The notes under the pieces were generated by a model. That model did no database searches. It was not told the origin of the DNA and saw nothing but the letters and a program-made list of their open reading frames with translations. Shown one piece after another: positions 2,441 through 27,976 of a stretch of DNA of 38,576 bases. Source of the stretch: Chrysochromulina tobinii (Eukaryota); the NCBI GenBank assembly GCA_001275005.1, contig JWZX01003036.1, positions 1-38,576 of the forward strand. The letters are read 5' to 3'. The translations under genes and the position numbers were made by a program. Position 1 is the first letter of the stretch. Each line of letters opens with the position of its first letter.

Positions 2441-5293
2441 ATGGCGGCGCCCGTCCTGAAGCCCGGCGCCGCCACCGCCCGCGCAGGCTCGCTGATTTAC
2501 CGCGACATCCACGCGCCTCGCGACTTGCTTCCCGATCTCGCCGCCGCACTGGCCAGCCACGATCGGGAGCTCATCTTGCTCACGAGCAACGACGACCAGT
2601 ATGACCTCGCAGTCAACCTGATCGCCAACCTAGCCACGTTCGGGCTGCATAACCACGTCTTGCTGACGGACAATGCGGTGCTCTCGGTGCACGCGAGTCG
2701 GCAGGGTGCCGTCGCAGCCGTGTGGAGCACGATGCTAGATAGCTACACGGAGCGACCGGCGGTCGGCCCTGACTGCCCTGCAGGCTGCCACGACCCGGAT
2801 CCGCGCACCTCCGGTCGCACACATACTCCGCTGCGATGCCGGCGCACCGCGCCCGATGCCGCATCAGCGGGCGCCGAGTCCTGCCCACCCTCGCCCGCAG
2901 CGTTTTACCGCGCGGACGCGGTGCGCCGGCTCTGGCTGATGCGCTATCACTACGCAGCGCGGCTCGTGGGCTTGCGGTACCGCGTGCTCGTGCTTGACTC
3001 GGACTCGATCGTGTTGACGAACCCGTACCCTCTGCTGCGTGCGCTCGCACACGAGGTCCGCCCCCTCGGACTCGCGGTCGGCGTGGAGGACGTAGGCGCC
3101 TGGCCCGACATGTCGATCAACGGAGGCACCTGGTATCTGAGCGCGCGGCCGGGTGGGCCGGTGCAGGACTTGTTTGCATCGGTGATGGAGCACGCGCGGC
3201 GCGTGCTCGACGCCTACCCAGCACGGCGCATTTTGGACACGAGCCCCAAGGTGCGGCGGGGCAAGGCGGCCGATTTTTTGCTCTTCGACCAGACCTTAGT
3301 CAACGTCGCCCTGCTCTCGCGATGTCTCGGGCGCCCTGTCAACCTCACCTCCTCCGAGTCCGTTCGAATGGCGACCGGGGCTGATGAGCGGCAGCGCGTT
3401 CAGTGGAAGCGCGCATGCTGCTACGCCGCACCTTCAGAGCTCGGTCACCCGCCGTGGCGCGCTGGCGACGAGGCACAGCAAAAGGGCACCGGCTTGTTGT
3501 TGTGCGGCGGCGGCGGCGGCGGCGGCAGAGGCGGCGCGAGCGGCGTCCGCGGCATGCCGGTGCACTTGCAAGGCTTCAATCCGCGGCACATTTCGGCGCT
3601 GCTCGGCGGCGGCGGCACCTCTGCCGGCTGCGATCCGAGCAGCGTGCCGTATGGTACTGCCTATGAGCTTCGGTACCACCTCCTCCGCAACCACAGCCCC
3701 GAGGAGTCGAGATCGTACCTCCCCGAGATTGCATCTCTCTCTGAGCTTGCATCTCGGGAGATTGCATCTCTCTCCGAGCTTGCATCGCGCCCGCCCACCC
3801 AACGGCCGTCGGTACCGGTACCAGTACGTGCACCCCTTGCCGGAGTTTGCGGCGAGCGTTGTGTGCCACGGGACGTCTGCGCCAGGCTGTGTGCGCGCCG
3901 GGCGGGCGCCGTCACGGTCGCAGCCGCCCAGGTGTGTGCGCGCGACAGGTCGTGTGCAAATTGGAGCCGCTTCAGCGACGAAGGTCAAGAGGCGGTGCTC
4001 AAATCGCCACCTTGGCTCTTTGCTTCGGAGAGCGATCGCGACGGCAAGAGTGGGCGTGCGCATGCCACCTTCTGGGGCGCGCGCCCACCGCCCGCCGCCA
4101 TCATTCACTTCGTCTGCTCCAGCTGGCCGGGCTCTGACGGGCGGCGCGCGGCGATGCGCCTGTGGGGGCACTGGCATGCTGCGGACGTGTATGCGGAGGC
4201 GCCCGAGAGGGGACGTGCCCTCATCGAGTTTCGTCAACGCGGGTTCGTCAGCTTCGACGCCCCGGTGGACGCGGCTCGACCGGCGGCGCTCATGCCGTAC
4301 CTGAGGCTGCTCACTCTGGTGGCGCACGCCACAGGTCGAACGCCGAGCCTACCGGTCGTGCGCTGCGACGCCGAAGGGCAGGCGTGGGTGGAGGAACGCA
4401 TCGATGCGCGCACCGGCTGGCCTACGAGCCAACGCGACGGCAAAGGCAAGGGCAGCAAAGGCAAAGGCGGCGGAGGCGGCGGTGTCAGCGGCATGGATGA
4501 TCGATCGGGCCGCGGGCGCCCCTGTGGCTGGGCGTTCCACCACATCGCTGAGCGCTCGAGCACTGTGGAACTAGAGGAGCCCCTCTGCGTGCAGCGCCCA
4601 TTGGAAGGGTGCTTCCTCGCCTTTGCGACCCCGGATGAGCTCGCACCGCACGTGCCGCTCGGATTTTGGCGACGCTTCGCCGCGCGTGGCCGCACACCAG
4701 CCAGCACACCAGCCAGCACACCAGCCAGCACACCAGCCAGCACACCAGCCAGCACACCAGCCAGCACACCAGCCAGCACACCAGCCAGCGCACAGCCGGG
4801 AGCAGTCACGGAGACAGTCCTGTCCGCCGCCACCGCCGAGGTCGAGGCGCGTCAGCACGCCACCCCCACCGTCGAGGCGGACGCACATGAGTTTCGTCGA
4901 GTTTCGTCGAGTTTCGCCAAAGGCCCACCCACCGTCGAGGCGGACGCACCGCCGCTCCTCAGCCTCTTCGACGGCGCCAACGGTCGCAACCTGACTCTTG
5001 ACGATCTCTCGCGACGCACGCGCCCATACGTGCTGCCCACGACGACGCTTCCCACGACGTTTCCCACGAGCGCAGGCGCGACCGCAGCGCGCGTGCCGCT
5101 GCTTCTGATTGGGACGCCCAGTGCGGCGCTTCTGGCTCAGCAACCGCTGCTCGAGAAAGAAAGAGTAGGCGAGGCGCTGCGCACGATCAACCGGGGCTCT
5201 CTCGTGCCCACCAACGGCCCCGCGCGCTGGGGAGCGACTTGGATGCAGTGCATGCGCATGGTGCTGAACAACAAGTGCGCCGCCGTCTGTTAG
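2441..5293 (+). CDS. Nucleotide-diphospho-sugar transferase-like (GT77-like) glycosyltransferase; may contain in-frame introns
   Basis: 950-aa ORF with LAVNLIANL, LWLMRYHYAARLVGLRYRVLVLDSDSIVLTNPY (DxD), INGGTWY, FDQTLVN and IIHF motifs. Confidence 0.65.
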   Translation: MAAPVLKPGAATARAGSLIYRDIHAPRDLLPDLAAALASHDRELILLTSNDDQYDLAVNLIANLATFGLHNHVLLTDNAVLSVHASRQGAVAAVWSTMLDSYTERPAVGPDCPAGCHDPDPRTSGRTHTPLRCRRTAPDAASAGAESCPPSPAAFYRADAVRRLWLMRYHYAARLVGLRYRVLVLDSDSIVLTNPYPLLRALAHEVRPLGLAVGVEDVGAWPDMSINGGTWYLSARPGGPVQDLFASVMEHARRVLDAYPARRILDTSPKVRRGKAADFLLFDQTLVNVALLSRCLGRPVNLTSSESVRMATGADERQRVQWKRACCYAAPSELGHPPWRAGDEAQQKGTGLLLCGGGGGGGRGGASGVRGMPVHLQGFNPRHISALLGGGGTSAGCDPSSVPYGTAYELRYHLLRNHSPEESRSYLPEIASLSELASREIASLSELASRPPTQRPSVPVPVRAPLAGVCGERCVPRDVCARLCARRAGAVTVAAAQVCARDRSCANWSRFSDEGQEAVLKSPPWLFASESDRDGKSGRAHATFWGARPPPAAIIHFVCSSWPGSDGRRAAMRLWGHWHAADVYAEAPERGRALIEFRQRGFVSFDAPVDAARPAALMPYLRLLTLVAHATGRTPSLPVVRCDAEGQAWVEERIDARTGWPTSQRDGKGKGSKGKGGGGGGVSGMDDRSGRGRPCGWAFHHIAERSSTVELEEPLCVQRPLEGCFLAFATPDELAPHVPLGFWRRFAARGRTPASTPASTPASTPASTPASTPASTPASTPASAQPGAVTETVLSAATAEVEARQHATPTVEADAHEFRRVSSSFAKGPPTVEADAPPLLSLFDGANGRNLTLDDLSRRTRPYVLPTTTLPTTFPTSAGATAARVPLLLIGTPSAALLAQQPLLEKERVGEALRTINRGSLVPTNGPARWGATWMQCMRMVLNNKCAAVC
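4694..4789 (+). repeat. 12-bp tandem repeat ACACCAGCCAGC x8, encoding (TPAS)n
   Basis: Perfect tandem array visible in the sequence. Confidence 0.95.
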
Positions 5294-5506
5294 GTTTGAA
5301 AACGGGATATTTCACTCACAGCATCATCTGTGAACGCGTAGTCGTGGTTTTCTTGGACCGGACGCGACAGACGTGTCAAGCAAAGAACGTAATCACGACA
5401 CATGCGACGCTGTGGGGGCGACGAACGAGTGTGAAAAAGCGTGTGTGAAACTGGAAAACAACGGTCGGACCCGCGCTTCGCGGCAGGTGCGCTGCGCTTC
5501 GTGTGG

Positions 5507-7804
5507 ATGCCAGCCTGGACTGGAGGGGAGACCCGAGACAAATCAGCCGAGGAGGCGATCGACTTCTCGGGGACAGAGCGCGCCTTCCTGTGCGAGCCGC
5601 TAGCCGAGGAGGCCTGCCGCAAGGCGGGCGTGCTGCTCGAGGAACTGCGCCCGCGCTCGTATGCCTCGTTCTCCGTCAAGGGCCAGGATGAGTGGCTGCA
5701 GCAGAAGCGGAGTGACGCGTACGAACAGAGGCGGCAGTTCAAGTGGCGACTCGTGCGTGAGCAGCACGCTCGCCTTGAGGCGGAGGACGCCAAGCGTCGG
5801 ACCCTGAAGGCCATCGAGGCCAGTGCCGGCGCTGCGGCTGGAGGTGCGAGCGTGGCGCAGCGGCAGCACGAGGCGGCGCTGAAGATCGTGGTGGAGCGGC
5901 AGACGCGCCTTCTCGAGAATGAGCTGCGTTCCGAGGCGCAGCGCCAGCGCATCGAGCGCAAGCAGGAGGCGGCGGCACAGGCGCGCGCCGAGTCGGCGAA
6001 CGAGCGCTCACGGGCAATCGAGGCGGCGAGGAGCAGCCGAGAGCTCATGTACGAGGTGCGCGGCGCGCGGCGCGAACTTGAGGATCGGCTCGGGCAGCCG
6101 ACGCCGCGCCCGGCGCGCCCGGCCTCAGCGCCGCACGCGCGGCCATCGAGCGGCGGCATCGGCTGCGGCGGCGGCGGCAGCGGCAGCGCGCGGAGCGCGA
6201 CGGGCGAGGCGGTCCGGCAGCGTGAGGAGGCGCAGCGCAAGCAGCAGCGCGCCATGGTGGAGGCGAAGATGGCGGCCAAGGAGGCGAGCACGGCGCGCCG
6301 ACGGGAGGCCGTTGCGACTGAGCGTGAGGTGCGCCGCCTCTACGCGGAGCAGATGAGGTTACGTCATGAAGAGCGCAAGGCGGCTTGCGAGCTGCAGGTG
6401 ATGCAATCGAAGATGCGCACGATGCGCGAGCTGCTCGACAAGCAGGAGAAGGCGCAGCATGAGCGTGATCGGCGCAACGCGGCCATCAAGAACGGCGAGG
6501 GGATCCTAGGGTCCTTGGTACGCAGTGCATCCGACGGCGCCCTCGGCGGCGGCTACGGGGGCCGTAGTGGCTACGGCGACGGCGGCTACGGCAGCGACGG
6601 CGGCGCGGGTGCCGGCGGCGAGGAGAATGCTCAGAACTCGCGCCAGGCGCGGGAGGAGAAGCGTAAGAATGTGGCCGCACGCCTGCAGCAAGCGCACGAG
6701 CGCCTGGCACACAAGCAGAAGCAGCAGCAAGAGGAGTTTGCTCTCAAGGAGAAGAAGGCCGACATGGCGCGTGCGCTCGCGGCGCAGGCGGCCGAGGCGG
6801 CGCGGCAGCAGGCGGCCGCCAGGCAGTTCGAGCACGAGCAGCGGAGCCAAGCGGCCGCCCTCGCCGCCGACCTCGCCCTCGAAGCGAAGCGCGCCAAGGT
6901 GCAGAGTGCCGCGGAACTGCAGGCGAGGCGTACGGAGGATTCGAAGAAACGGGTCGACGAGGAGCGAAGGCGCAAGCGGATCGAGGCGGAGGTGAGGGAG
7001 GAGGCGCAGCGCGAGAATGCCGAGCGCGTGCGCCGCGCTGAGCAGTACCGGATCAAGGAGACTGAGCGTTCGATTGAAGACAAGGACAGGCGTTACGACG
7101 AGAAGCGTCAGAATGCGGAGCAGCAGCAGAAGATGCGGCTCGCGTACCAGATCGCACGGGCGAAACAGGAGGAGGCCCTGCAGGCGAAGCTCAATGCGCG
7201 CGCGCACCAGGAGCTGCAGAGTTTAGGCAGCGCGCGTGCGACGCCCGCCGCGCTTGCGACGGCGCTCGAGGCGTACGAGCCTGTGAGGCACGAGCCGCCG
7301 CCGCCGCGAATGCGCCCGCGAGGACGCGAGGGCAGGCGCGACGCTGGCGGCGGCGGCGGCGAGGGCGACGGGGCTGGAGGGGGCGAGGCGGCGGTGCTCG
7401 AGACGGCGCGCGATGGGCGGCGGAGGCGCCGCGAGGCCAGCTCGGAGGCGGCAGAGCCGGCGCTCGCGACGGCGCCCCACGGCGACACGCGTGCTGACAG
7501 CGCCGCCGCGACGGCCGACGGCGGGTACGGGCGCAGCACGCAGCAGTTGAAGGCCTATGCCGCCATCGAGAGGCTGCGCGCTCGCCAGAACGCCGAGCTG
7601 CGCGCGGCCGTTGAGGCTGAGCAGCTCAAGGAGGCTGAGCGCGCACGCATCCTCGAGGCCACAGCCGACGGCGCCGACAAGACGCGCTTGCTCAAGCTGC
7701 TCAAGCTCGAGCGCGAGCGAGCCGACTCGGAGCTCATGGCGCTCACCGCCGAGCACGAGCTGGCCCTCGCGGAGCAATTCGCGAAGCTCGGGGTCACGCG
7801 CTGA
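5507..7804 (+). CDS. Long charged coiled-coil protein; N-terminus weakly resembles CCDC177-like proteins
   Basis: Uninterrupted E/R/K/Q/A-rich ORF with N-terminal EEACRKAGVLLEELRPRS motif. First in-frame ATG is 5507; the true start is uncertain. Confidence 0.7.
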   Translation: MPAWTGGETRDKSAEEAIDFSGTERAFLCEPLAEEACRKAGVLLEELRPRSYASFSVKGQDEWLQQKRSDAYEQRRQFKWRLVREQHARLEAEDAKRRTLKAIEASAGAAAGGASVAQRQHEAALKIVVERQTRLLENELRSEAQRQRIERKQEAAAQARAESANERSRAIEAARSSRELMYEVRGARRELEDRLGQPTPRPARPASAPHARPSSGGIGCGGGGSGSARSATGEAVRQREEAQRKQQRAMVEAKMAAKEASTARRREAVATEREVRRLYAEQMRLRHEERKAACELQVMQSKMRTMRELLDKQEKAQHERDRRNAAIKNGEGILGSLVRSASDGALGGGYGGRSGYGDGGYGSDGGAGAGGEENAQNSRQAREEKRKNVAARLQQAHERLAHKQKQQQEEFALKEKKADMARALAAQAAEAARQQAAARQFEHEQRSQAAALAADLALEAKRAKVQSAAELQARRTEDSKKRVDEERRRKRIEAEVREEAQRENAERVRRAEQYRIKETERSIEDKDRRYDEKRQNAEQQQKMRLAYQIARAKQEEALQAKLNARAHQELQSLGSARATPAALATALEAYEPVRHEPPPPRMRPRGREGRRDAGGGGGEGDGAGGGEAAVLETARDGRRRRREASSEAAEPALATAPHGDTRADSAAATADGGYGRSTQQLKAYAAIERLRARQNAELRAAVEAEQLKEAERARILEATADGADKTRLLKLLKLERERADSELMALTAEHELALAEQFAKLGVTR

Positions 7805-8772
7805 GGGGCAGCCCTCGGGAGTGAGGGGAGACATAAATATGTCACCGTCTCGCGGACGAATCTGGGATCCAGATCCTCAGGTGGGAGGGCGCTCAGGTAA
7901 CGCCTCGCCACGACATTAAGGTAGTCCGCTTATGTTGTACATGGGGCGAAACCTGTGATCTCCAAAAAAACTGTCTGACACTTAAGGGGATTATGGAAGA
8001 AACCGCTCGAGCAAGAGGGAAGAGGTGTTCCGCCCGTGTGGTGCTCCCGCGTTCTTGGCAATGGCATTCGACATTGATGATGTGATGCGTCGATCATGAT
8101 TGAAAAAGTCAAAGTGGTCTTCCGAGTTCGTCCGTGTACAATTGTACCGTGATTCTTCGGAGTGACGGTGCTGAGTTGTGCGTGAGTGAGTGCGGGACTA
8201 TAGCCTCCTCCTGGGGCTACTTGTAGTCTGTTCACATGAACGACGCCGCGGTTTGGCAAGTCGCGTGGAGGAAAAGCGCCCCGCGAGTCGTCCTCTTCGC
8301 TCTTCGTGCTCCGTCGCTCTTCGTGCTCAACGTGCGTCGGTGCGATCGCTGCACGTGCGCACTGTGCCGCCTTCGCACGCGGAATCGATCGAGTCCGCTC
8401 AGGTGCTTTCCTCTATGGTGCCCCGCGGGCAATCCTGCATCTCCGGAGGGAGCACATATCGCGTCTCCCCAGGCGCCGCCTCCTTCCTCTCCACTCCCGC
8501 GCGCTTCACTGCCATGTGACTGCCCAATCCTGAGACCCCGAGCTGGGCTGCTTCTCTCGAGGGCATGCGACTTTCCGTTCGCGATGAGCTTCGGAGCCAC
8601 ATACGCGCACGCGAGTCCCCTCATCCTTGCGGCACGCTGTTGGCTGCTGCATATCTGCGCCGAGACACGTCAAGCGCCCTTCAAGCTTGCAGCCGCTTGT
8701 GTGCCCATATCTCTATGCTGCCGAATCTCGCATGCAGCCTAATCCTCTCTATACTTCTCTCTTGTTCGCAGG

Positions 8773-9838
8773 ATGGTCGCGATGCTCATCAACTTTGTAG
8801 CGGAGAAGACGGATGCGCACAGCGACGGGATCAGGTCGGTGGCGTTTTCCCCAGACGGGACGAAGATTGTGTCTGGATCGGTCGACAAGACGATCAAAGT
8901 CTGGGATTCCGGTGCGCTTTTGCCCTCAAATCGCCCCTCCTCTTGGCCAAACTGATGCCTGCTGGCTTGTCTGGCAGGCAAACTGGAGCTGATGAGCGAG
9001 AAGACGAACGCGCACAGCGAATGGATCTCGTCGGTGGCGTTTTCCCCAGACGGGACCAAGATCGTGTCGGGATCGGGCGACAAGACCATCAAAGTCTGGG
9101 AGTCTGGTGCGCCGCGAACTCAAATCACGCCCCTCCTTGGCCAAAACTGATCCCTGCTGGCTTGTCTGGCAGGCAAGCTGGAGCTGATGAGCGAGAAGAC
9201 GACCGCCCACAGCGACACCATCGGGTCGGTGGCATTTTCCCCGGACGGGACCAAGATTGTGTCCGGATCGGACGACGGGACGATTAAAGTCTGGGATTCG
9301 GGTGCGCCGCGAGCCCTCAAATCGCCCTCCTTGGCCAAAACTGAACCCTGCTGGCTTGTCTGGCAGACAAACTGGAGCTGTTGAGCGAGAAGACCAATGC
9401 CCACAGCCACTTTGTCATGTCGGTGGCGTTTTCCCCGGACGGGACCAAGATTGTGTCCGGATCGGCTGATGGGACGATCAAAGTCTGGGATTTGGGTGCG
9501 CTGAGCCCTCACAATCGCCCCTCCTTGGCCAAAACTGATGCTTGCTGGCTTGTCTGGCAGGCAAGCTGGAGCTGATGAGCGAGAAGACGAATGCGCACAG
9601 CGACTACATCAACTCGGTCGCGTTTTCCCCGGACGGGACCAAGATCATCACCGGATCGGACGACAAGACGATTAAAGTCTGGGATATCATCAATTGGTCT
9701 CGCAAAGATCACTTGATGTTCAACGTTACCACCCAGCGATTTGTCTTGCAGATGCTGTGGCTGAACAAATACATAATGAAGTTTCCTGATGATGTGATTG
9801 ATCTGCTCATCGAAGCTTGCTTGCCGAAGCAGGTGTGA
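8773..9838 (+). CDS. WD40-repeat protein with five repeats; exons 8773-8911, 8978-9106, 9173-9301, 9367-9495, 9561-9838
   Basis: Five [30 protein letters not shown][DE] repeats separated by four near-identical phase-1 GTGCGC...CTGGCAG introns. An acceptor-like TTGTTCGCAG ending at 8771 suggests an additional upstream exon. Confidence 0.9.
8912..9560 (+). repeat. Tandem exon+intron units of about 195 bp; introns at 8912-8977, 9107-9172, 9302-9366, 9496-9560
   Basis: The introns are 65-66 nt and share CCTCC..TTGGCCAAA(A)CTGA...TGCTGGCTTGTCTGGCAG. Internal exons are exactly 129 nt. Confidence 0.9.
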
Positions 9839-10637
9839 GGTGAGGCGGGATGTCGGTAACCGTGCCGTGCATTGTTTGTTTTAGCTCAAAACTGTCAGAA
9901 TCGAACGTGGAAATCCCATTCTGCATACTCTAGTTCACAAACCAGCCCATAACCAGCCCAAAACTTACAATTTTACTAGACAAAAGTCAAAACCCTCTAA
10001 TTTCGCACAGAAAGCACGCACGACGCGTGCGGGATTGGGGATATTTGTCCCATGATTTGTCCACTTCTTTGTGGTAAAGGCTGCGAAACTGCGTTCGGTA
10101 AATTCGGTCAGCGTTCACTGTCGGTGCAGCGTGGAGATAGATCCAGAATTCATATGGATGGGTAGGGCCAAGAAGAAAAAGACCTTCCTAATTTGTGATG
10201 AAAGGCTGCTGCAAAATGAAAGGCGGCAACTCTGCAACTCTGTCATCATCTACTTCAGAAGCCAGCATCGTACGCCACCCGCACGTTTTTTGCAGTGGGG
10301 AAATCGTCTCTCGCGATGGGACCACACTGGTTCCTGGCGTCTCGCCTGGGTCCTCGGCTGCCCCTGGTCTCGGCGTCTGTCGTCGCGATGCCTGACGACG
10401 ACCAGCTTTCAGATCTAGCCAGCGTGCAGATCCGCTCGCATCCACATCTCGCGCAGATCCGCTCGCGCAGTCACCATGGCCACCGTGCGGCCACCGTAAC
10501 CTGAATCACTCCAGGCGGCTGCCAAGCTGCCGTGCGCCACGACACCGTCGTCTCTCGACGCCGCCGTCGTCACGCGACGGCGGCATCGAGTGACTTCTTT
10601 TGCGTTCCCTTCGGGGGGCGCGCCAACGGGCGCGTCT

Positions 10638-21069: not shown

Positions 21070-21252
21070 GTGAGAAAAAGCATCGATCCCACTGTCAGCC
21101 TTTCATGTGTGTGTTTTTGATCAGGTCGTCCCTTTTTCTCAGCATGCAAGAGTTGCCTCAAACACCCTTTTTCGTCTTATTGCCTAAAACGGATCTCTTT
21201 TGTTTTTCAGAGGGAGGCCTTGTGAGGCCTCTCTTCGTCCTCAGCGTGCGGC

Positions 21253-24200
21253 ATGAACCGCTTCGTATGCTTCTCGTGCTTGGTGTCAATCTATGCGTTG
21301 CCGCGTCAGCAGAGTGCGGTCTCCCTTCAGAAGGAGGTGGAGACTCAGGGCAAACTTTACCACAACCCGCCGCTGCTGCCGGAGAAGGAGCGTCGACGCG
21401 TGCATCACCTCCTTGAACGCGGAGAGCACGCAGTCGGTGCTCTACCGCCGCGAGAGATTGCGGCGAGCAGCGACTCTGTGCTGAATCCTTATACTATATC
21501 TTACGGAGCTATATCTTATCCTGACCGCTTCAACAAGGAGCCGAGCCATGCCTTGCCCGTGTCGAGCAATGCGTTGCCCGCCCATCAAGCTGCTGCGATC
21601 AGGATCATCCTGGACCGTGACCTGAAACAGGCTTCCGCGATCAGGGAACTCCTGGGCAGTGCAGATGGCTTGCAGCCCGAGGAGGGTGAGACTATCGGGT
21701 ATGGCCAACGCGACCTCGCAGCAACTCCCGAAGACAGCGCCATCGCACCGTGCACACCGGGGGAGGACGTCGAGGACGTGCCGTGTGCCCTATGGGCCAC
21801 TCAGGGCGAGTGCGAACATATTCCTGTGTTCATGCACTCAAACTGCGCAGCGTCGTGCCCCTGTCCAACGCCCACGTCCAACACCGGCTTCAGCCAGCTA
21901 GCAGGAAAGCTCCAAGTGTGCAAGCCGTGGTGCCCGGCGCACACAGCCCGATTGGATGTCAAGTGCGCCTTCCCCCAGTGCAACGGGTGTGCAGGGTGCG
22001 ACGCGAGCGACCCAAGCAACTTCCACGCACCGACCGCGGTCATCAAGGATGCGCCGATCATCAAGCCCATCCCGGCATGCAAGCCGTGGTGCCCGGCCCA
22101 CACAGCTCGATTGGGTGTCAAGTGCGCCTTTCCACAGTGCAGCACGTGTGCAGAGTGCGACGCGCTCAACACACCGGCAGCCAAGTTCCCAATCTTGCCC
22201 TTCAACGCTTCGGGAGACGACGAAGTGGGCTTGGTCGATGTAGGCTCGGGAGACTTCAACAACGCGGTCGACGAGCCCATCACACTAGCCTCGCCGGACT
22301 CGATAGGCGGCAGTTGCAAGCCGTGGTGCCCGGCGCACACAGCCCGAATGGAGGTCAAGTGCGCCTTTCCCCAGTGCAACGGGTGTGCAGGGTGCGACGC
22401 GCTCAACCTCAACACACCGACGAAGGTCGATGAGCCCATCCCAACTGCTGTTCTCGAGACAGACACATGCAAGTCGTGGTGCGCCGAGCACACCGCGGCC
22501 CTGGAGGTCAAGTGCACCTATGTCCCGTGCAGCACGTGTGCAGAATGCGGAGCGACGGAAGAAAGGGGTACCAAGCCGACGACTTCTTTTTTCGTCGAGA
22601 CAGACACATGCAAGTCGTGGTGCGCGGAGCACACAGCGGCCCTGGAAGTCAAGTGCACCTATGTCCCGTGCAGCGGATGTGCAGAATGCGCGGCGACGAC
22701 CTCCCCCCAGCCGACCTCCCCCCAGCCGACCTCCCCCCAGCCGACCGCTTCGGCACTCTCGCCGCCCCCTTCGCCATCGCCTCCACCGCCACCGCCACCA
22801 CCGTCGCCACCACCTTCACCATCACCACCTCCACCACCACCCTCGCAGCTGCCTTCACCTCCTCCGCCGTCGCCGCCAACGCCACCAATGACGGAGGAGG
22901 AGACGCAGCTAGCAGCGCCGGCGGAGAAGGTGGCGCAGCCAGCCGAGGACAAGGCGGCCCTCGAGAAGCTTGTGGCCGAAAAGATGGCTGAGCTTCAGAA
23001 AGCCAAACTCGCTCTGGAAGAGAAAGAGAGACTCGCTCTGCAGGAGAAGGAGCGCCTCGCTCTGCCGTCGCCGTCGCCGTCGCCGCTAGCACCATCGCCG
23101 CAGCCGCCGTCACCGCCACCATCGCCGCCGCCGTCGCCGCCACCATCGCCGTCGCCGCCGCCGTCGTGGTCGCCAGAAGTGCAGCCCGATTTCTCACCAC
23201 CACCTCAGGTTCAGCCCGAATTCTCACCACCACCTCAGGAGCAGCTCGACGTTATTGCTGAGCCCTCGAACCTTAGTGCTGAGCCCACGAAGGCGCAGGT
23301 GCTCGTGATCGTTTCGGACCACGGGAGCGGCACGTCGGACTTGGGGGTGGCCCTCAATACGCACCCGTGCATGCATGACCTGATGGAGCCGTTTGGCGAC
23401 GCTCTCGCCCTTTGGTCGTCGAGCAAGCTCGCGAAGGCAACCTGTGGCGAGTCGCGAACGGTCAAGAACGCTCTCTTCGACGCTGACTCGCATCAGCTCG
23501 TCAATGCGGTCAACGCGAAGCTGTCGGGCACGATCGATCGCGTGCTCACGCACTTTAACAAGAAAACCACCACAGCGGATTACTCGGTGCTGTACGAGGG
23601 CCTCGACTACAACCTCGCCGAGTACTTTGTGCGCGTGCGCGACCTCGTGTGTTCTCACATCCCCGCGACGGAGTGCCCGCGTGAAGACTGCGCGATCGTA
23701 CTCAAGTTCTTCCCGGCGTACGTCGACGTGAGTACCGAAGGACAGAAGACTCGGACCGACCTGCCGGATAAGTGCTCCGCGGCCAAGAAAGAGAAGAGCA
23801 TGGGCGCGTGGGCGGACACGCTCGAGTCGCTCCAGAGAAACCCCAAGGTCGCGACGCTGCAGTACAACCGCAATGAGCTCGATCGCCAATTCTCCAACTT
23901 CCACCGCTTCAGCCCGATCGGCACACGGTTCGACTGCACGATCCAACGCTCACCCAGCGAGTACGCGATCGCGGCACGGGATCACACGGACCTCCAGATC
24001 GGGGTCGAAAGCTGCTGGAAGGATGCCGAAGGTGCCGACAAGTGCCTCGGCGATGCCCTCAAGCTCGTCGGCCTCACCCCGCGAGCCATGATGGGCAAAG
24101 GCACGGAGGTGATGATGAGCGAGCTGAACGCGAGAGCCGAGAAAGGAAAGGTCGCCAGCCAGACCTGCTCCACCAACCAGACCGCCACGTTTACACGGTT

Positions 24201-25363
24201 CGCGTCCGGCGTCCAGATCACGGCAGTGTCGCCCTTGTACATGTACAACGCGCAGCAGGATGTCTTGCCGCAACAAGGCTACCCGCCACCTCCGACACCG
24301 CCTTCACCGCCATCATCGCTGCCTGCTCCATCACCACCCCTCTCGCCATCGCCGGCATCGTCACTGAGCTGGAACGATGCTATCCGCGACTGGAGGCTAG
24401 CTGACAAGGTCATGAAGCTTCCCGCCAACAACCGGGGCATCCCAGACAACGTGAGCGAGAACGACAAGGAATGGCAAGCCAGCATCCCTACTCTCGACAG
24501 GACGATGGCACCACCGTCGCAGCAGGGAGGCAAGCCAGAGCAGGGAGGCATGCCAGAGCAGGGAGGCAAGCCAGAGCAGGGAGGCATGCCAGAGCAGGGA
24601 GGCAAGCCAGAGAAGGGAGGCATGCCAGAGCAGGGAGGCATGCCAGAGAAGGGAGGCATGCCAGAGCAGGGAGGCAAGCCAGAGCAAGGAGGCAAGCCAG
24701 AGCAGGGAGGCATGCCAGAGCAAGGCTACCCGACACAGCAGCAGCAGCAGCAGGAGGGCCACTTGCCACAGGAGGGAGGCACGCCGCCGCAGCAGGGTGT
24801 GCCCCCCGCCGCAGCAGGATGTGCCCCCGCCGCAGCGCGACGTGCCCCCGCCGCAGCAGGACGTGCCCCCGCCGCAGCAGCAGGCCCACCCGCCACAGAA
24901 TTCGCCTGACCCGACCGAGGTCAACTCACCGGCCACGGTCGACGAGCCACCGGCCAGGGCCGATGAGCCGCCCGCCGAGGATACCCCGAGGGCAGAGTCA
25001 TGCGAAGACACGAAGGACGTGCCGTGCGCTTCGTTGGCCGCTATTGGCGAGTGCCAACGCATCCCAGTGTTTATGCACTCGACGTGCGCCTTGTCGTGCG
25101 GCTGCCCCGCGCCTGCTTCCTCCGAGGAGCTCCTACGGCGCGAAAGGGCCGACCAGGCTATTCTGGACCAAGCCAGGCTGAGTCGGCTCTGGGAGGAGGA
25201 TCCACCCTTGGCTCGGGGGCATTCGTCCTCAGCGGGACGGAGGCGTCCAGAGGACGTCGCGGTGGTGTCGGCCGAGGCATTAGCAGGGCTTGCCCCTTCC
25301 GAGCGTCGAAGGATAAGTCGGCTGTGGAAGCAAACGGGTGCGCTTTCGGCGCTTGTGCCATAG
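21253..25363 (+). CDS. Secreted mosaic protein: ShK-like domain, five 6-Cys repeats, Pro-rich linkers, sulfotransferase-like domain, PEQGG repeats, and a second ShK-like domain after an apparent frameshift at 24802-24807
   Basis: ORF 21253-24909 plus overlapping ORF to 25363. ShK-like CALWATQGECEHIPVFMHSNCAASC and CASLAAIGECQRIPVFMHSTCALSC. HGSGTSDL...LNTHPC...EPF resembles a sulfotransferase PAPS-binding loop. Confidence 0.75.
24521..24726 (+). repeat. 18-bp coding minisatellite, about 11 copies, encoding PE(Q/K)GG(K/M)
   Basis: CCAGAGCAGGGAGGCAWG units visible in the sequence. Confidence 0.95.
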
Positions 25364-25948
25364 GCGGCCGAAGCACTCGCCGCCACCGGTACGTACTGGT
25401 ACTGGCGAGCCTTATGGCAATGTGGTCTCCACACCAGACTATGCTCCGCGCTGTGGTGGGCGGCGCTATGGTGGGCGGCCATCGTGAGGCGCGCGCGCGC
25501 GCTCGGGCACAGGTGCCTCCATCGAGAGCGAGGTCCCTGGTGCTTGTGTTCCTAACGTTCCTGACCTTCGTTGGAGGCGAGGAGTGTAGCGCCATGAGGC
25601 GTGAGTGCGATGCGGGGAGAGTTCGTTTCCCTTTCCATGTGGGCTCGTGCGTCGCGGTGGCGGTGCGAGCAACGCCTGACGCGGGCGCTGTGACGGTGCG
25701 GGAGCGGGGCCGGGGGCTTGGCATGCGAATCGTTTTGCGTTGTGTGGGATTGGTCACGGGGAAGTTGGGGTGTCCGCGAAAAGAAAGACACAAACACCGA
25801 TTAACTAATGTCCGAACCAGCGTCGAATCGTGATCGTTCACCGACCGTTCGTTTGCATATGCACATGCAAAAATCGCCCAAAATCGGAAAGAAGGACATC
25901 TTGGGGAGGCTCACGCGCTTCTGGAGAGCTGCGCAGCGCAGCTGCGCA

Positions 25949-27976
25949 ATGGTTTTCACCAACGCATTTTTGGTGACTATATTTGCCTTACCGCGTCACA
26001 GGAGTGTAAACTCCCTCGACATGGCTGACGACAAATTTCCTGTCAAGACGATCGTTTTGATGGCGCTCGAGCACGCAGTGGTGGAGACTGAGGCCAAGTC
26101 CCCGCCGCTTCGCCGTCACCCGCCAATGCTGCCGGAGAAGGAGCGCCGACGCGTGCATCGCCTCCTTGAGCGCGGAGTTCACGGAGTCGGTGCGGAGCTG
26201 AGTCCTCATGATCCTGTCCGCTTCAGCGACGAGCCGAATCATACCTTGCACGCCGATCAAGTTGCCGCGATCAGGAATCTCCTGGACAGTGCAGGTGACA
26301 TGCCGCCTGAGGTGCCTCAGCCTATTGGATATGAGATTAGGCGTCCCAATTCAACGAATTCAACTCCCGACACCGCACCGTGCATACCGGGGGAAGACAT
26401 CGCGGGCGTACCGTGTGCCCTATGGGCCACTCAGGGCGAGTGCGAACATATTCCTGTGTTTATGCGCTCAAACTGCGCAGCGTCGTGCCCCTGCCCAACG
26501 TCAACCTCTGTTCCCGGCTCCAGCCAGCTCTCAAACAAGGTGCCAATATGCAAGCCGTGGTGCCCGGCGCACACAGCCCGATTGGATGTCAAGTGCGCCT
26601 TTCCACAGTGCAGCACGTGTGCAGAGTGCGACGCGCTCAACCTCAACGCACCGGCCGCGGTCGACGGGCCCACCAAATTGACCTCGCCGGACTCGATAGG
26701 CGGCAGTTGCAAGCCGTGGTGCCCGGCGCACACAGCCCGAATCGAGGTCAAGTGCGCCTTTCCCGGGTGCAGCACGTGTGCAGGGTGCGACGCGCCCAAC
26801 CTCAACGCACCGATCGCGGACCATGAGCCGAAGCAAGTGAAGGACGATGAGCCCATCTCGACAGACGGTTGCATGGCGTGGTGCGCGGAGCACACAGCAG
26901 CATTGGAGACCAAATGCACCTTTGGACCGTGTAATCAGTGTGCCGGATGCGAGTCGCTCAGCGCGCTCGTCACAGCGCCGACCACGCCGACCTCGATAGA
27001 CGGGTGCATGGCGTGGTGTCCCGCGCACACGGCGGCCCTGGAGGTCAAGTGCACCTATGTCCCGTGCATGCAATGCGCAGTGTGCGAGTCGCTCGACATA
27101 CCGTCCACGGCCGATGCGCCGACCTCGATCTCGCCAATCTCGTCGACGTCGCCGACCTGGCGGAACATGATGGACGGATGCATGCCGTGGTGCACCTTTG
27201 AGGGCATGTGCAACTTCGCCGCATGCATGCAATGCGAAGCATGCGGCGGGCCGGCGCTCAGCCTCGACGCACCGACCGCGGACGAGGAGCCGACCTCGGG
27301 AGACAGTGCACCAGTCGAGCAGGATGCCGCCAAACTGGACCCAATGCTCCTCCCGACATTGCACAAGATCTTAGATCCTGGCACGACCTTGCACGAGACA
27401 TTAGGCGGGTGCGATCCCGCGTGGTGCTTCCCAGACGTTCAGTGGGGCAAGTGCACCATTCCGCAGTGCAAGCGATGCGCAGAATGCGAGCTGCCGCCCG
27501 CGCCGCCTTCTCAAATTCCGAGGCCTTCCACACTGCCATCCACACTACCATCCCCAGTCTCGTCACCGGTTTCGTCACTTGGGTGCGCTCCGTGGTGCGT
27601 GGCGCACACAGCGGCAATGGAGGTCAAGTGCAATTTCATCCCGTGCAAGCAATGTGCCGGATGCGAGTCACTCTACACGCCGTCCAAAGCTGATGAGCTG
27701 GCCTCGTCCGACCTGCCGACTCACCGGCTCTTCATCCCGGGTCACTGGCCATCACCTGTGCGGAAGCGCTACTCGGCCCGTGACGACAAGCGCTCCCACC
27801 TTGCGTCCGACCTGACGTCCGTGAGCACCGATGTGGGCTCTCTGCCCTTCATTCTCGCCATGGCTTCCTTTGCTCTTTGCGCCATCGCCTTCCTTTGCCC
27901 GTACCTGTGGCTGTGCTGCTGCGCTTCGCTTCGCCTGCGAACGACGAAGCTATCAGAAAGAGAGGGCTACGGCTAA
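25949..27976 (+). CDS. Type I membrane Cys-repeat protein (ShK-like domain, seven 6-Cys repeats, C-terminal TM); paralogue of the 21253 gene
   Basis: Signal-like MVFTNAFLVTIFALP. Shares LPEKERRRVHxLLERG, the ShK-like domain and CKPWCPAHTAR repeats with the upstream gene. Hydrophobic LPFILAMASFALCAIAFLCPYLWL near the C-terminus. Confidence 0.8.
   Translation: MVFTNAFLVTIFALPRHRSVNSLDMADDKFPVKTIVLMALEHAVVETEAKSPPLRRHPPMLPEKERRRVHRLLERGVHGVGAELSPHDPVRFSDEPNHTLHADQVAAIRNLLDSAGDMPPEVPQPIGYEIRRPNSTNSTPDTAPCIPGEDIAGVPCALWATQGECEHIPVFMRSNCAASCPCPTSTSVPGSSQLSNKVPICKPWCPAHTARLDVKCAFPQCSTCAECDALNLNAPAAVDGPTKLTSPDSIGGSCKPWCPAHTARIEVKCAFPGCSTCAGCDAPNLNAPIADHEPKQVKDDEPISTDGCMAWCAEHTAALETKCTFGPCNQCAGCESLSALVTAPTTPTSIDGCMAWCPAHTAALEVKCTYVPCMQCAVCESLDIPSTADAPTSISPISSTSPTWRNMMDGCMPWCTFEGMCNFAACMQCEACGGPALSLDAPTADEEPTSGDSAPVEQDAAKLDPMLLPTLHKILDPGTTLHETLGGCDPAWCFPDVQWGKCTIPQCKRCAECELPPAPPSQIPRPSTLPSTLPSPVSSPVSSLGCAPWCVAHTAAMEVKCNFIPCKQCAGCESLYTPSKADELASSDLPTHRLFIPGHWPSPVRKRYSARDDKRSHLASDLTSVSTDVGSLPFILAMASFALCAIAFLCPYLWLCCCASLRLRTTKLSEREGYG

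Follow-up and report, generated by a model that had tools for sequence, protein, structure and literature searches.

A transcribed one-exon-per-blade WD40 gene of Chrysochromulina tobinii and a blade pool common to NACHT-type and NACHT-less genes

Structure and Transcription of the Gene

The window, that is, the whole stretch of Chrysochromulina tobinii DNA analyzed here (38,576 nt), contains a 194-nt tandem array at 8803-9685 (85% matches in Tandem Repeats Finder), which was parsed on the forward strand as a gene with five coding exons and five WD40 blades, one blade per exon. Coding exon 1 (8772..8911) comprises the probable start ATG 8773, an N-terminal strand and WD40 repeat 1 (PF00400, E 5e-13). 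It is followed by three internal blade exons of 129 nt each, phase 1-1, for repeats 2 (8978..9106), 3 (9173..9301) and 4 (9367..9495), of which the first two were placed by sequence and RNA joints and the third by sequence. The last exon (9561-9838) encodes WD40 repeat 5 in its part 9561..9685 (PF00400, E 1e-12) and, at 9686..9838, a family-specific 50-residue C-terminal tail (9686-9835) with three predicted helices, followed by the stop. The four introns, all GT..AG and all in phase 1, are 66 nt (intron 1, 8912..8977; intron 2, 9107..9172) and 65 nt (intron 3, 9302..9366; intron 4, 9496..9560) in length and 83-90% identical in pairwise comparison, and exon plus intron make up a unit of 195 nt. 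The spliced product from ATG 8773 is open over 267 residues, and its repeats are 69-83% identical in amino acids to repeat 5. The first-pass annotation of this DNA had described internal 129-nt phase-1 cassettes separated by near-identical introns, which was confirmed for the three internal exons and their introns; its extent of 8773..9690 leaves out the 50-residue tail and a spliced intron upstream.

This upstream intron (8403..8771, GT..AG, 369 nt) was seen in one RNA contig of run X13, and an alternative donor at 8340, giving an upstream intron of 432 nt, in one RNA contig of the same run; the joint contigs have sides of 32 and 25 nt, and unspliced contigs across the intron are also present. 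The exon in front of it is probably 5′ UTR and was delimited by paralogue comparison and RNA joints, its family-shared part being 8311..8402; homology to the paralogues begins sharply near 8311. Since this exon has no conserved reading frame, the gene was taken to start at 8773, and a start motif like that at ATG 8773 is conserved in short-type paralogues (see below). An N-terminal extension from the in-frame ATG 8236 was judged unlikely because that ATG is not conserved in the paralogues; in DNA run X3 a 1-nt deletion at 8258 would shift its frame.

The joint of intron 1 (8911>8978) was present in three of the four RNA runs (X11, X13 and X14) and that of intron 2 (9106>9173) in all four, both with no mismatches in X13. 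For introns 3 and 4 no locus-specific joint was found among the RNA contigs of the four runs, and their support, besides the sequence, consists of loose RNA ends at the family level. The window gene is thus real and transcribed, with introns 1 and 2 spliced. Two loci from other assemblies, L029 and L083, are 100% identical to the window over 4963-10399 and 8663-9871, respectively, and the longest identical stretch between any two units of the window is 37 bases. On both grounds collapse or mis-assembly of the repeat, a concern of the first-pass annotation, is unlikely. No blade-number variants of the window locus were found in the matching assemblies and runs. The last residues of the window copy (9820-9838) differ from those of most paralogues, and DNA run X8 contains an allele without one base at 9826.

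Just upstream, on the same strand, lies an open frame of 789 residues (5435-7804) without a Pfam match; upstream of paralogue L074 the first 91 nt of a match to this frame are present. Two long related frames at 21226-24909 and 25805-27976 (1227 and 723 residues) gave no Pfam match; a dispersed family of 51-nt repeats is present in them with 12 copies. The neighbours over 11131-38011 are otherwise ordinary: an EGF and exostosin GT47 protein, a GH20 hexosaminidase, an EF-hand metallophosphoesterase, a serine carboxypeptidase, an RRM protein and a zinc dehydrogenase. Repeat scans of the window gave no second WD40 array.

The Gene Family and Its Sister Genes

The family was collected by one exact-pattern (intron plus exon) scan of metagenome contigs, in which 102 matches gave 99 loci, a number to be read as a lower bound on family size and one that includes many re-assemblies of the same gene; the same pattern gave no match in viral contigs. 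The locus is therefore not a single-copy invariant one, the outcome that would have spoken against the first-pass reading, and belongs to a dispersed multi-copy family of dozens of related genes. The loci fall into two classes, short and long, both built from the same exon-plus-intron unit. Short genes have about 1.5 kb in common, from 8311 to the stop, within unrelated flanks, and long genes end differently and contain 6-11 of these blades. The 16 distinct complete short genes have seven blades in 11 cases, six in 2 and five in 3, so that the five blades of the window gene are indeed, as had been pointed out, fewer than the canonical seven. Both classes occur in one assembly, as judged by contig prefix, to which L083 (identical to the window) and the long-type L028 belong. 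Among the distinct internal exons of the family 178 of 193 are 129 nt long, one 0-nt and one 42-nt artefact and the units with unrecognised splice sites having been left out of the parse.

Pfam searches upstream of the blades in five long or atypical genes placed L006 and L021 above the NACHT cut-off and L028 and L068 below it; L020 showed the downstream helical domain only, within the sequence range available. Sister genes thus carry NACHT/NPHP3_N domains in front of the same blade type, and one blade pool feeds both NACHT-WD40 genes of the NLR type and short NACHT-less genes. The upstream ORFs of the window gene that were scanned gave no NACHT match.

In L006 (1201-2100), and also in L021, L028 and L020, an insert is found between the NACHT core and the winged-helix region. 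This insert matches the structure 6ox6 (Tas1), which we take to be a (p)ppApp synthetase, at E 2.5e-4, and Pfam and NCBIfam gave no support for a Tas1-like assignment; judged from the sequence match, the insert may be a built-in alarmone-type effector. Another type of NACHT-like gene is represented by L068 (3-3833), with ten blades and two long frames separated by a stop, the N-terminal region of L068 being, by motif, presumably HET-like. In L046 (792-3257 and the array behind it) seven blade exons lie within the ARM repeats of a gene with a U-box, a dynamin-family GTPase and armadillo repeats; here the blade unit has moved into an unrelated gene. A non-blade cassette whose pattern we take to be WW-domain-like stands between blades in L021, L064, L075 and L020, in short and long genes alike, and an extended blade variant with longer loops is common to one long and two short genes (L018, L019 and L058).

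Of twelve tail-bearing protein matches the only named one is the C. tobinii gene model P0126, which places the family probably in Chrysochromulina; it is 82% identical over the last exon and joins a three-blade family member to a UDP-GlcNAc diphosphorylase, probably as a merged model of two neighbours; P0128 and P0131 apparently have a single blade before the tail.

Variable Positions and Selection

In the window gene the loop residues of the five blades are DGIR/EWIS/DTIG/HFVM/DYIN in the first loop and V/G/D/A/D and K/K/G/G/K in the second. For the variable codons of the five blades pN is 0.55 as against a pS of 0.34, and for the scaffold 0.04 as against 0.30, which bears out the earlier observation that variation is concentrated at these loop residues in an otherwise nearly invariant repeat. 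The pattern extends to 175 further exons of the family (those of the window excluded), in which entropy is 2.1-3.8 bits at positions 14, 15, 17, 33 and 35 and at most 1.3 bits elsewhere, and in which the five positions form 153 combinations. The intervening codons 16 and 34 are conserved and the other surface loop positions nearly invariant. Of the 119 database proteins with the last exon, 118 vary in the same way and have a nearly fixed tail.

Positions 15/17 and 33/35 together with 14 have the same spacing as the codons under selection in HET-E, which are numbered 7, 9, 25 and 27 in the part of one report available to us (PMC1805685) and 11, 12, 14, 30 and 32 in that of another (PMC12222747). 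The HET-E-like placement of the variable residues asserted in the first-pass annotation therefore stands. In nine fungal or unlabelled WD40-array proteins, 3-5 of the five sites were among the six most variable. By this register with HET-E, the five variable residues are predicted to lie on the top face of the propeller, facing a ligand.

Selection keeps the blade exons in frame: an open frame without a shift is retained by 192 of the 193 distinct internal exons, and length variants are divisible by three in 14 of 15 exons as compared with 9 of 111 introns (p=8e-12). At the five sites the diversity of codon positions 1+2 is 0.59 versus 0.25 at fourfold sites (p=1e-4), and it also exceeds that of intron sites. 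Between close pairs dN/dS was 1.4-1.9 for the five sites and 0.14-0.20 for the scaffold, ratios that would be inflated if codon bias holds back synonymous sites. The excess was significant from 56 edges up (omega 1.55-1.9, p=0.006 and lower), and the two closest-pair bins were not significant alone (p=0.21 and 0.15). A site-wise codon model on a tree, of a kind whose assumptions recombination violates, gave a pooled five-site omega of 0.96-1.12, not above 1; when one synonymous rate was shared by all sites, and only then, sites 15 and 33 reached 3.3 and 2.1; scaffold dN/dS was 0.12-0.20 throughout. The diversifying module proposed in the first-pass annotation thus shows an amino-acid excess in two of three tests, whereas the site-wise omega does not rise above 1, and the data suggest diversifying selection at the five sites of moderate, method-dependent strength.

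The synonymous rate showed no rise at the variable codons in the close-pair comparison, so that targeted mutation is not indicated; local hypermutation was rejected on this ground and because codons 16 and 34 are conserved. Eight blade cores of L070 differ from those of L006/L031 by a single base, a non-synonymous change in blade 5 at variable position 17.

The selection values bear on an alternative in which the five surface positions drift under relaxed constraint, the rest being homogenised by gene conversion, and recognition plays no adaptive role. The pooled omega near 1 and the non-significant closest-pair bins are what it would lead one to expect, and concerted evolution needs no selection. 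We consider it unlikely, since diversity at the five sites exceeds that of fourfold and intron sites, the close-pair omega is raised from 56 edges up, variation is close to absent at the remaining surface loop positions, selection acts on these same sites in fungal receptors as far as the accessible text of the reports cited above goes, and the blades belong to proteins with a NACHT domain.

Exchange of Blades between Genes

In a comparison of 147 blades drawn from 21 distinct genes, the mean number of differences per 105 nt was 17.5 for blades of one gene, 17.9 for different genes of the same class and 17.8 from one class to the other, and in a permutation analysis class had no explanatory value (p=0.60) and gene membership hardly any (p=0.046). 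Fifteen cross-gene blade pairs lie within 4 nt of each other, and seven of these pair a short gene with a long NACHT-type gene.

Seven allele pairs with common flanks (89-99.4% identical) were compared. In three of them (L027/L066, L009/L058 and L014/L044), all short-read metagenome contigs that could be chimeric, the blades differ to the extent of random family pairs, with tail and flank still close. The remaining four are collinear where comparable, with few changes, those in blades 2-3 of L002/L022 falling exclusively on variable codons; the first blade of L027/L066 and of L002/L022 was left out because insertions shift the register. Linkage falls off within some 10 nt of exon sequence (rho -0.21, p=0.0005), and the same first loop can be found with up to six second loops. 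The loops of a single exon are thus reassorted, and exchange cuts inside exons. The exchange of blades anticipated in the first-pass annotation is therefore upheld by the replaced alleles and by the pool across genes, but it is not confined to whole exons.

The Tail and the Number of Blades

The three helices of the 50-residue tail are predicted with pLDDT 78. The tail is unique to the short genes, where its pN/pS of 0.31 in 13 genes (L008 left out) indicates purifying selection, and in relatives it sits behind a WD40 blade at 38-57% identity. A profile search gave 17 representatives, one of them a low-complexity false match and most others WD40 plus tail, and a wider search gave 454 clusters at 90% identity, the best 120 of which were listed. 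The tail had no significant match in Pfam, NCBIfam or the PDB sequences, and none at E<0.001 with Foldseek in the viral and PDB libraries. Ten tail sequences gave no box family in Pfam at E up to 10. VIA gave a best Z of 5.4 with unrelated helical chains and no F-box or SOCS chain among the best 50 listed, and Atlas gave three unnamed clusters at 0.77-0.78, below the lead threshold. The last helix, as we read its motif, presumably resembles a cullin-adaptor box (F-box/PRANC, SOCS/VHL box). The tail would couple the propeller to a constant partner, and a putative cullin-ligase adaptor is our preferred guess for its role.

Since seven is the mode of the family and, in the part of the report available to us, the favoured size modelled for HET-E repeats (PMC12222747), the window copy, with five blades, probably represents a contracted allele of a gene that has seven. 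It is probably either inactive or completed by oligomerising, and would still donate and receive blades; a functional dimer is possible because, according to their PDB titles, repetitive WD40 fragments of three to five blades assemble as oligomers. A single-sequence fold of the three-blade protein P0132 was poor (pLDDT 60).

Dormant or inverted blade exons are absent from the window. Across the arrays, splice sites are non-canonical at two acceptors out of 204 and one donor out of 213; L019 and L058 have one acceptor each changed from AG to TG, and L044 has one frameshifted exon. Two blade exons are inverted beside the last blade of the long-type gene L012 (about 3500-4300), and its same-flank allele L072 has ten blades in order.

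These features have to be weighed against the suggestion that the short genes are a transcribed reservoir, or decoys, storing blades for the NACHT-WD40 receptors and having no output of their own. Their blades match those of NACHT-type genes within 1-4 nt, some of them have five or six blades, a frameshift in one exon (L044) or an inactive acceptor (L019 and L058), and Podospora pseudogenes retain intact repeats, according to the part of the report at hand (PMC1805685). A mere store of blades would nevertheless not be expected to keep under purifying selection a tail that is its own and that is conserved in relatives, nor to have exactly seven blades in 11 of 16 complete genes and intact acceptors in 202 of 204 cases, and we regard this suggestion as quite improbable.

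Introns and Splicing

Conservation in the interior of the intron is not above that of fourfold sites (pi 0.22 versus 0.25, p=0.44). In an alignment of 182 introns the first 16 or so positions vary strongly and the 3′ part of about 48 positions is well conserved, for which splice signals would be part of the reason. Inspection by eye of the unit ends in 14 genes revealed neither terminal repeats nor target-site duplications. The first-pass annotation had taken the symmetric phase and the similar introns as signs of a cassette. Both follow automatically from tandem copying or conversion of a whole 43-codon unit with one intron, and they are no evidence for a splicing or cassette mechanism. The skipping of blades by splicing that it had considered found no support either, as the RNA contigs contained no locus-specific GT..AG joint of this kind at 97% likeness. 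Skip-like joints appearing at 90% likeness were set aside as paralogue noise, their sides being mostly shorter than 30 nt and their ends not GT..AG.

Diversity arising mainly at the RNA level, or by programmed exchange of exon cassettes at conserved signals in the introns, as has been proposed for Ectocarpus, would suit the symmetry of every blade exon, the conserved 3′ two-thirds of the intron, the inverted blade pair of L012 and the skip-like joints at 90% likeness. It is nonetheless very unlikely, because those joints are short-sided, lack GT..AG ends and fit paralogues, because the loops of a single exon reassort, and because the intron interior does not exceed fourfold-site conservation. 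That the array is an assembly artefact or a product of mobile introns (introners), as short-read assemblies of an 85%-identical repeat with many paralogues in the same runs might lead one to suspect, is extremely unlikely, since the locus is identical in L029 and L083 with no more than 37 nt common to its units, RNA contigs cross the exon junctions without mismatch, and 534 of 535 intron matches adjoin a blade (within 260 nt, in the 99 loci chosen by the intron-plus-exon pattern), no copy having been found elsewhere in the 38.6-kb window.

Proposed Function and Its Implications

The reading that we regard as probable is that the window gene is a short, NACHT-less member of a family whose blade pool is likely remixed, giving each gene its own face of five residues per blade, likely for intracellular non-self recognition. 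Among the dozens of near-identical units of 195 nt, ectopic gene conversion and unequal crossover would keep the scaffold uniform, and the exchange between units, with breakpoints anywhere along the 195 nt and the intron as a passenger, would spread loop variants, while selection would remove frameshifts and favour new surface residues. Each gene would in this way present a different binding face of five residues per blade. The propellers would bind variable intracellular targets, viral or microbial, and hand them on to a constant partner via the tail. Ligand, partner and defence role are here suggested by analogy with the fungal precedent.

A more far-reaching possibility, which we offer tentatively and hold to be doubtful, is a two-armed immune repertoire drawing on one blade library, with NACHT-WD40 proteins that carry an alarmone-synthetase-like domain (Tas1/RelA-SpoT type) as one arm and seven-blade propellers with a ligase-recruiting tail as the other. 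If so, the arms would sense and shut down in the one case and bind and degrade in the other, and specificity acquired by one arm could be copied to the other by gene conversion. RelA/SpoT domains are listed on fungal NLRs in the accessible part of one survey (PMC4986451).

The question of how single-celled algae recognise invaders such as giant viruses is still largely open, and a giant virus and virophages are reported for the freshwater haptophyte concerned (PMC6459981). If the probable reading given above holds, the family offers a countable candidate repertoire of five codons per blade and some seven blades per gene; one could trace blade genotypes in the course of infections or from lake to lake, and address binding specificity by swapping blades.

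Comparison with Known Systems

The family would work like the fungal HNWD sensors, a group of which the window gene is not a member. In the HNWD/NWD genes of Podospora anserina (HET-D, HET-E and HET-R), as far as the accessible parts of the reports go, conserved WD40 repeats are exchanged within and between genes (PMC1805685, PMC12222747, PMC4986451), the variable codons are in the same register, the repeat number varies and a NACHT domain precedes the array. This last feature is found in the algal sister genes but not in the window gene, which has neither a NACHT nor a HET domain and ends in a three-helix tail. Lacking the NACHT domain, the window gene is not an HET-E/NWD receptor, the kind with which the first-pass annotation had aligned it; the sister genes with the same blades have that domain. 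The algal repeats differ further in that each is a separate exon with its intron, introns being unreported for the fungal repeats in the same parts of those papers, in that the pool is common to non-NLR genes, and in that the host is a unicellular alga and not a fusing fungus.

The ROCO-LRR and NB-ARC-TPR genes of Ectocarpus are likewise algal candidate receptors with one repeat per exon, for which the part of the report at hand describes intra- and intergenic recombination, diversifying selection and occasional inverted or silenced repeat exons (PMC3341825). Unlike their open LRR or TPR solenoids, the present array would form a closed WD40 propeller (mode seven); its introns are short and homologous, dormant exons are rare (2 of 204 acceptors) and exchange cuts the exons. 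A Pfam scan and a check of the upstream exon gave no ROCO or NB-ARC NTPase for the window protein, and since it is without an NTPase, the window gene is a member of neither receptor family.

The LRR arrays of Tetrahymena, with 90-bp exons in phase 2, are comparable as fixed-length single-phase exons in a protist that have spread by ectopic recombination, in the accessible text of the report (PMC6564038). No counterpart of their LRR repeats, their thousands of genes or their link to retrotransposons was observed in the present family, and that paper nowhere uses the term "positive selection" (PMC6564038). Near-identical blades are also known from PDB entries 2ymu, 7bie, 6r60, 6r5y and 6r5z, which are 35-39% identical to a three-blade family member. 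The match is mostly one of sequence, because the query model is of low confidence (pLDDT 60, TM about 0.2); by their titles, the repetitive WD40 entries are 3-, 4- and 5-blade fragments assembling as oligomers, and the proteins are bacterial or designed, without introns or tail.

Searches of the open-access literature gave no account of the family in haptophytes; it may appear in the supplementary gene lists published with the Chrysochromulina genomes. The underlying principle is known already. The family unites concerted WD40 repeats of the fungal kind with one-repeat-per-exon arrays of the algal kind, hitherto known from separate lineages. What is distinctive is the exon-per-blade WD40 design together with a pool common to NLR-type and NACHT-less genes.
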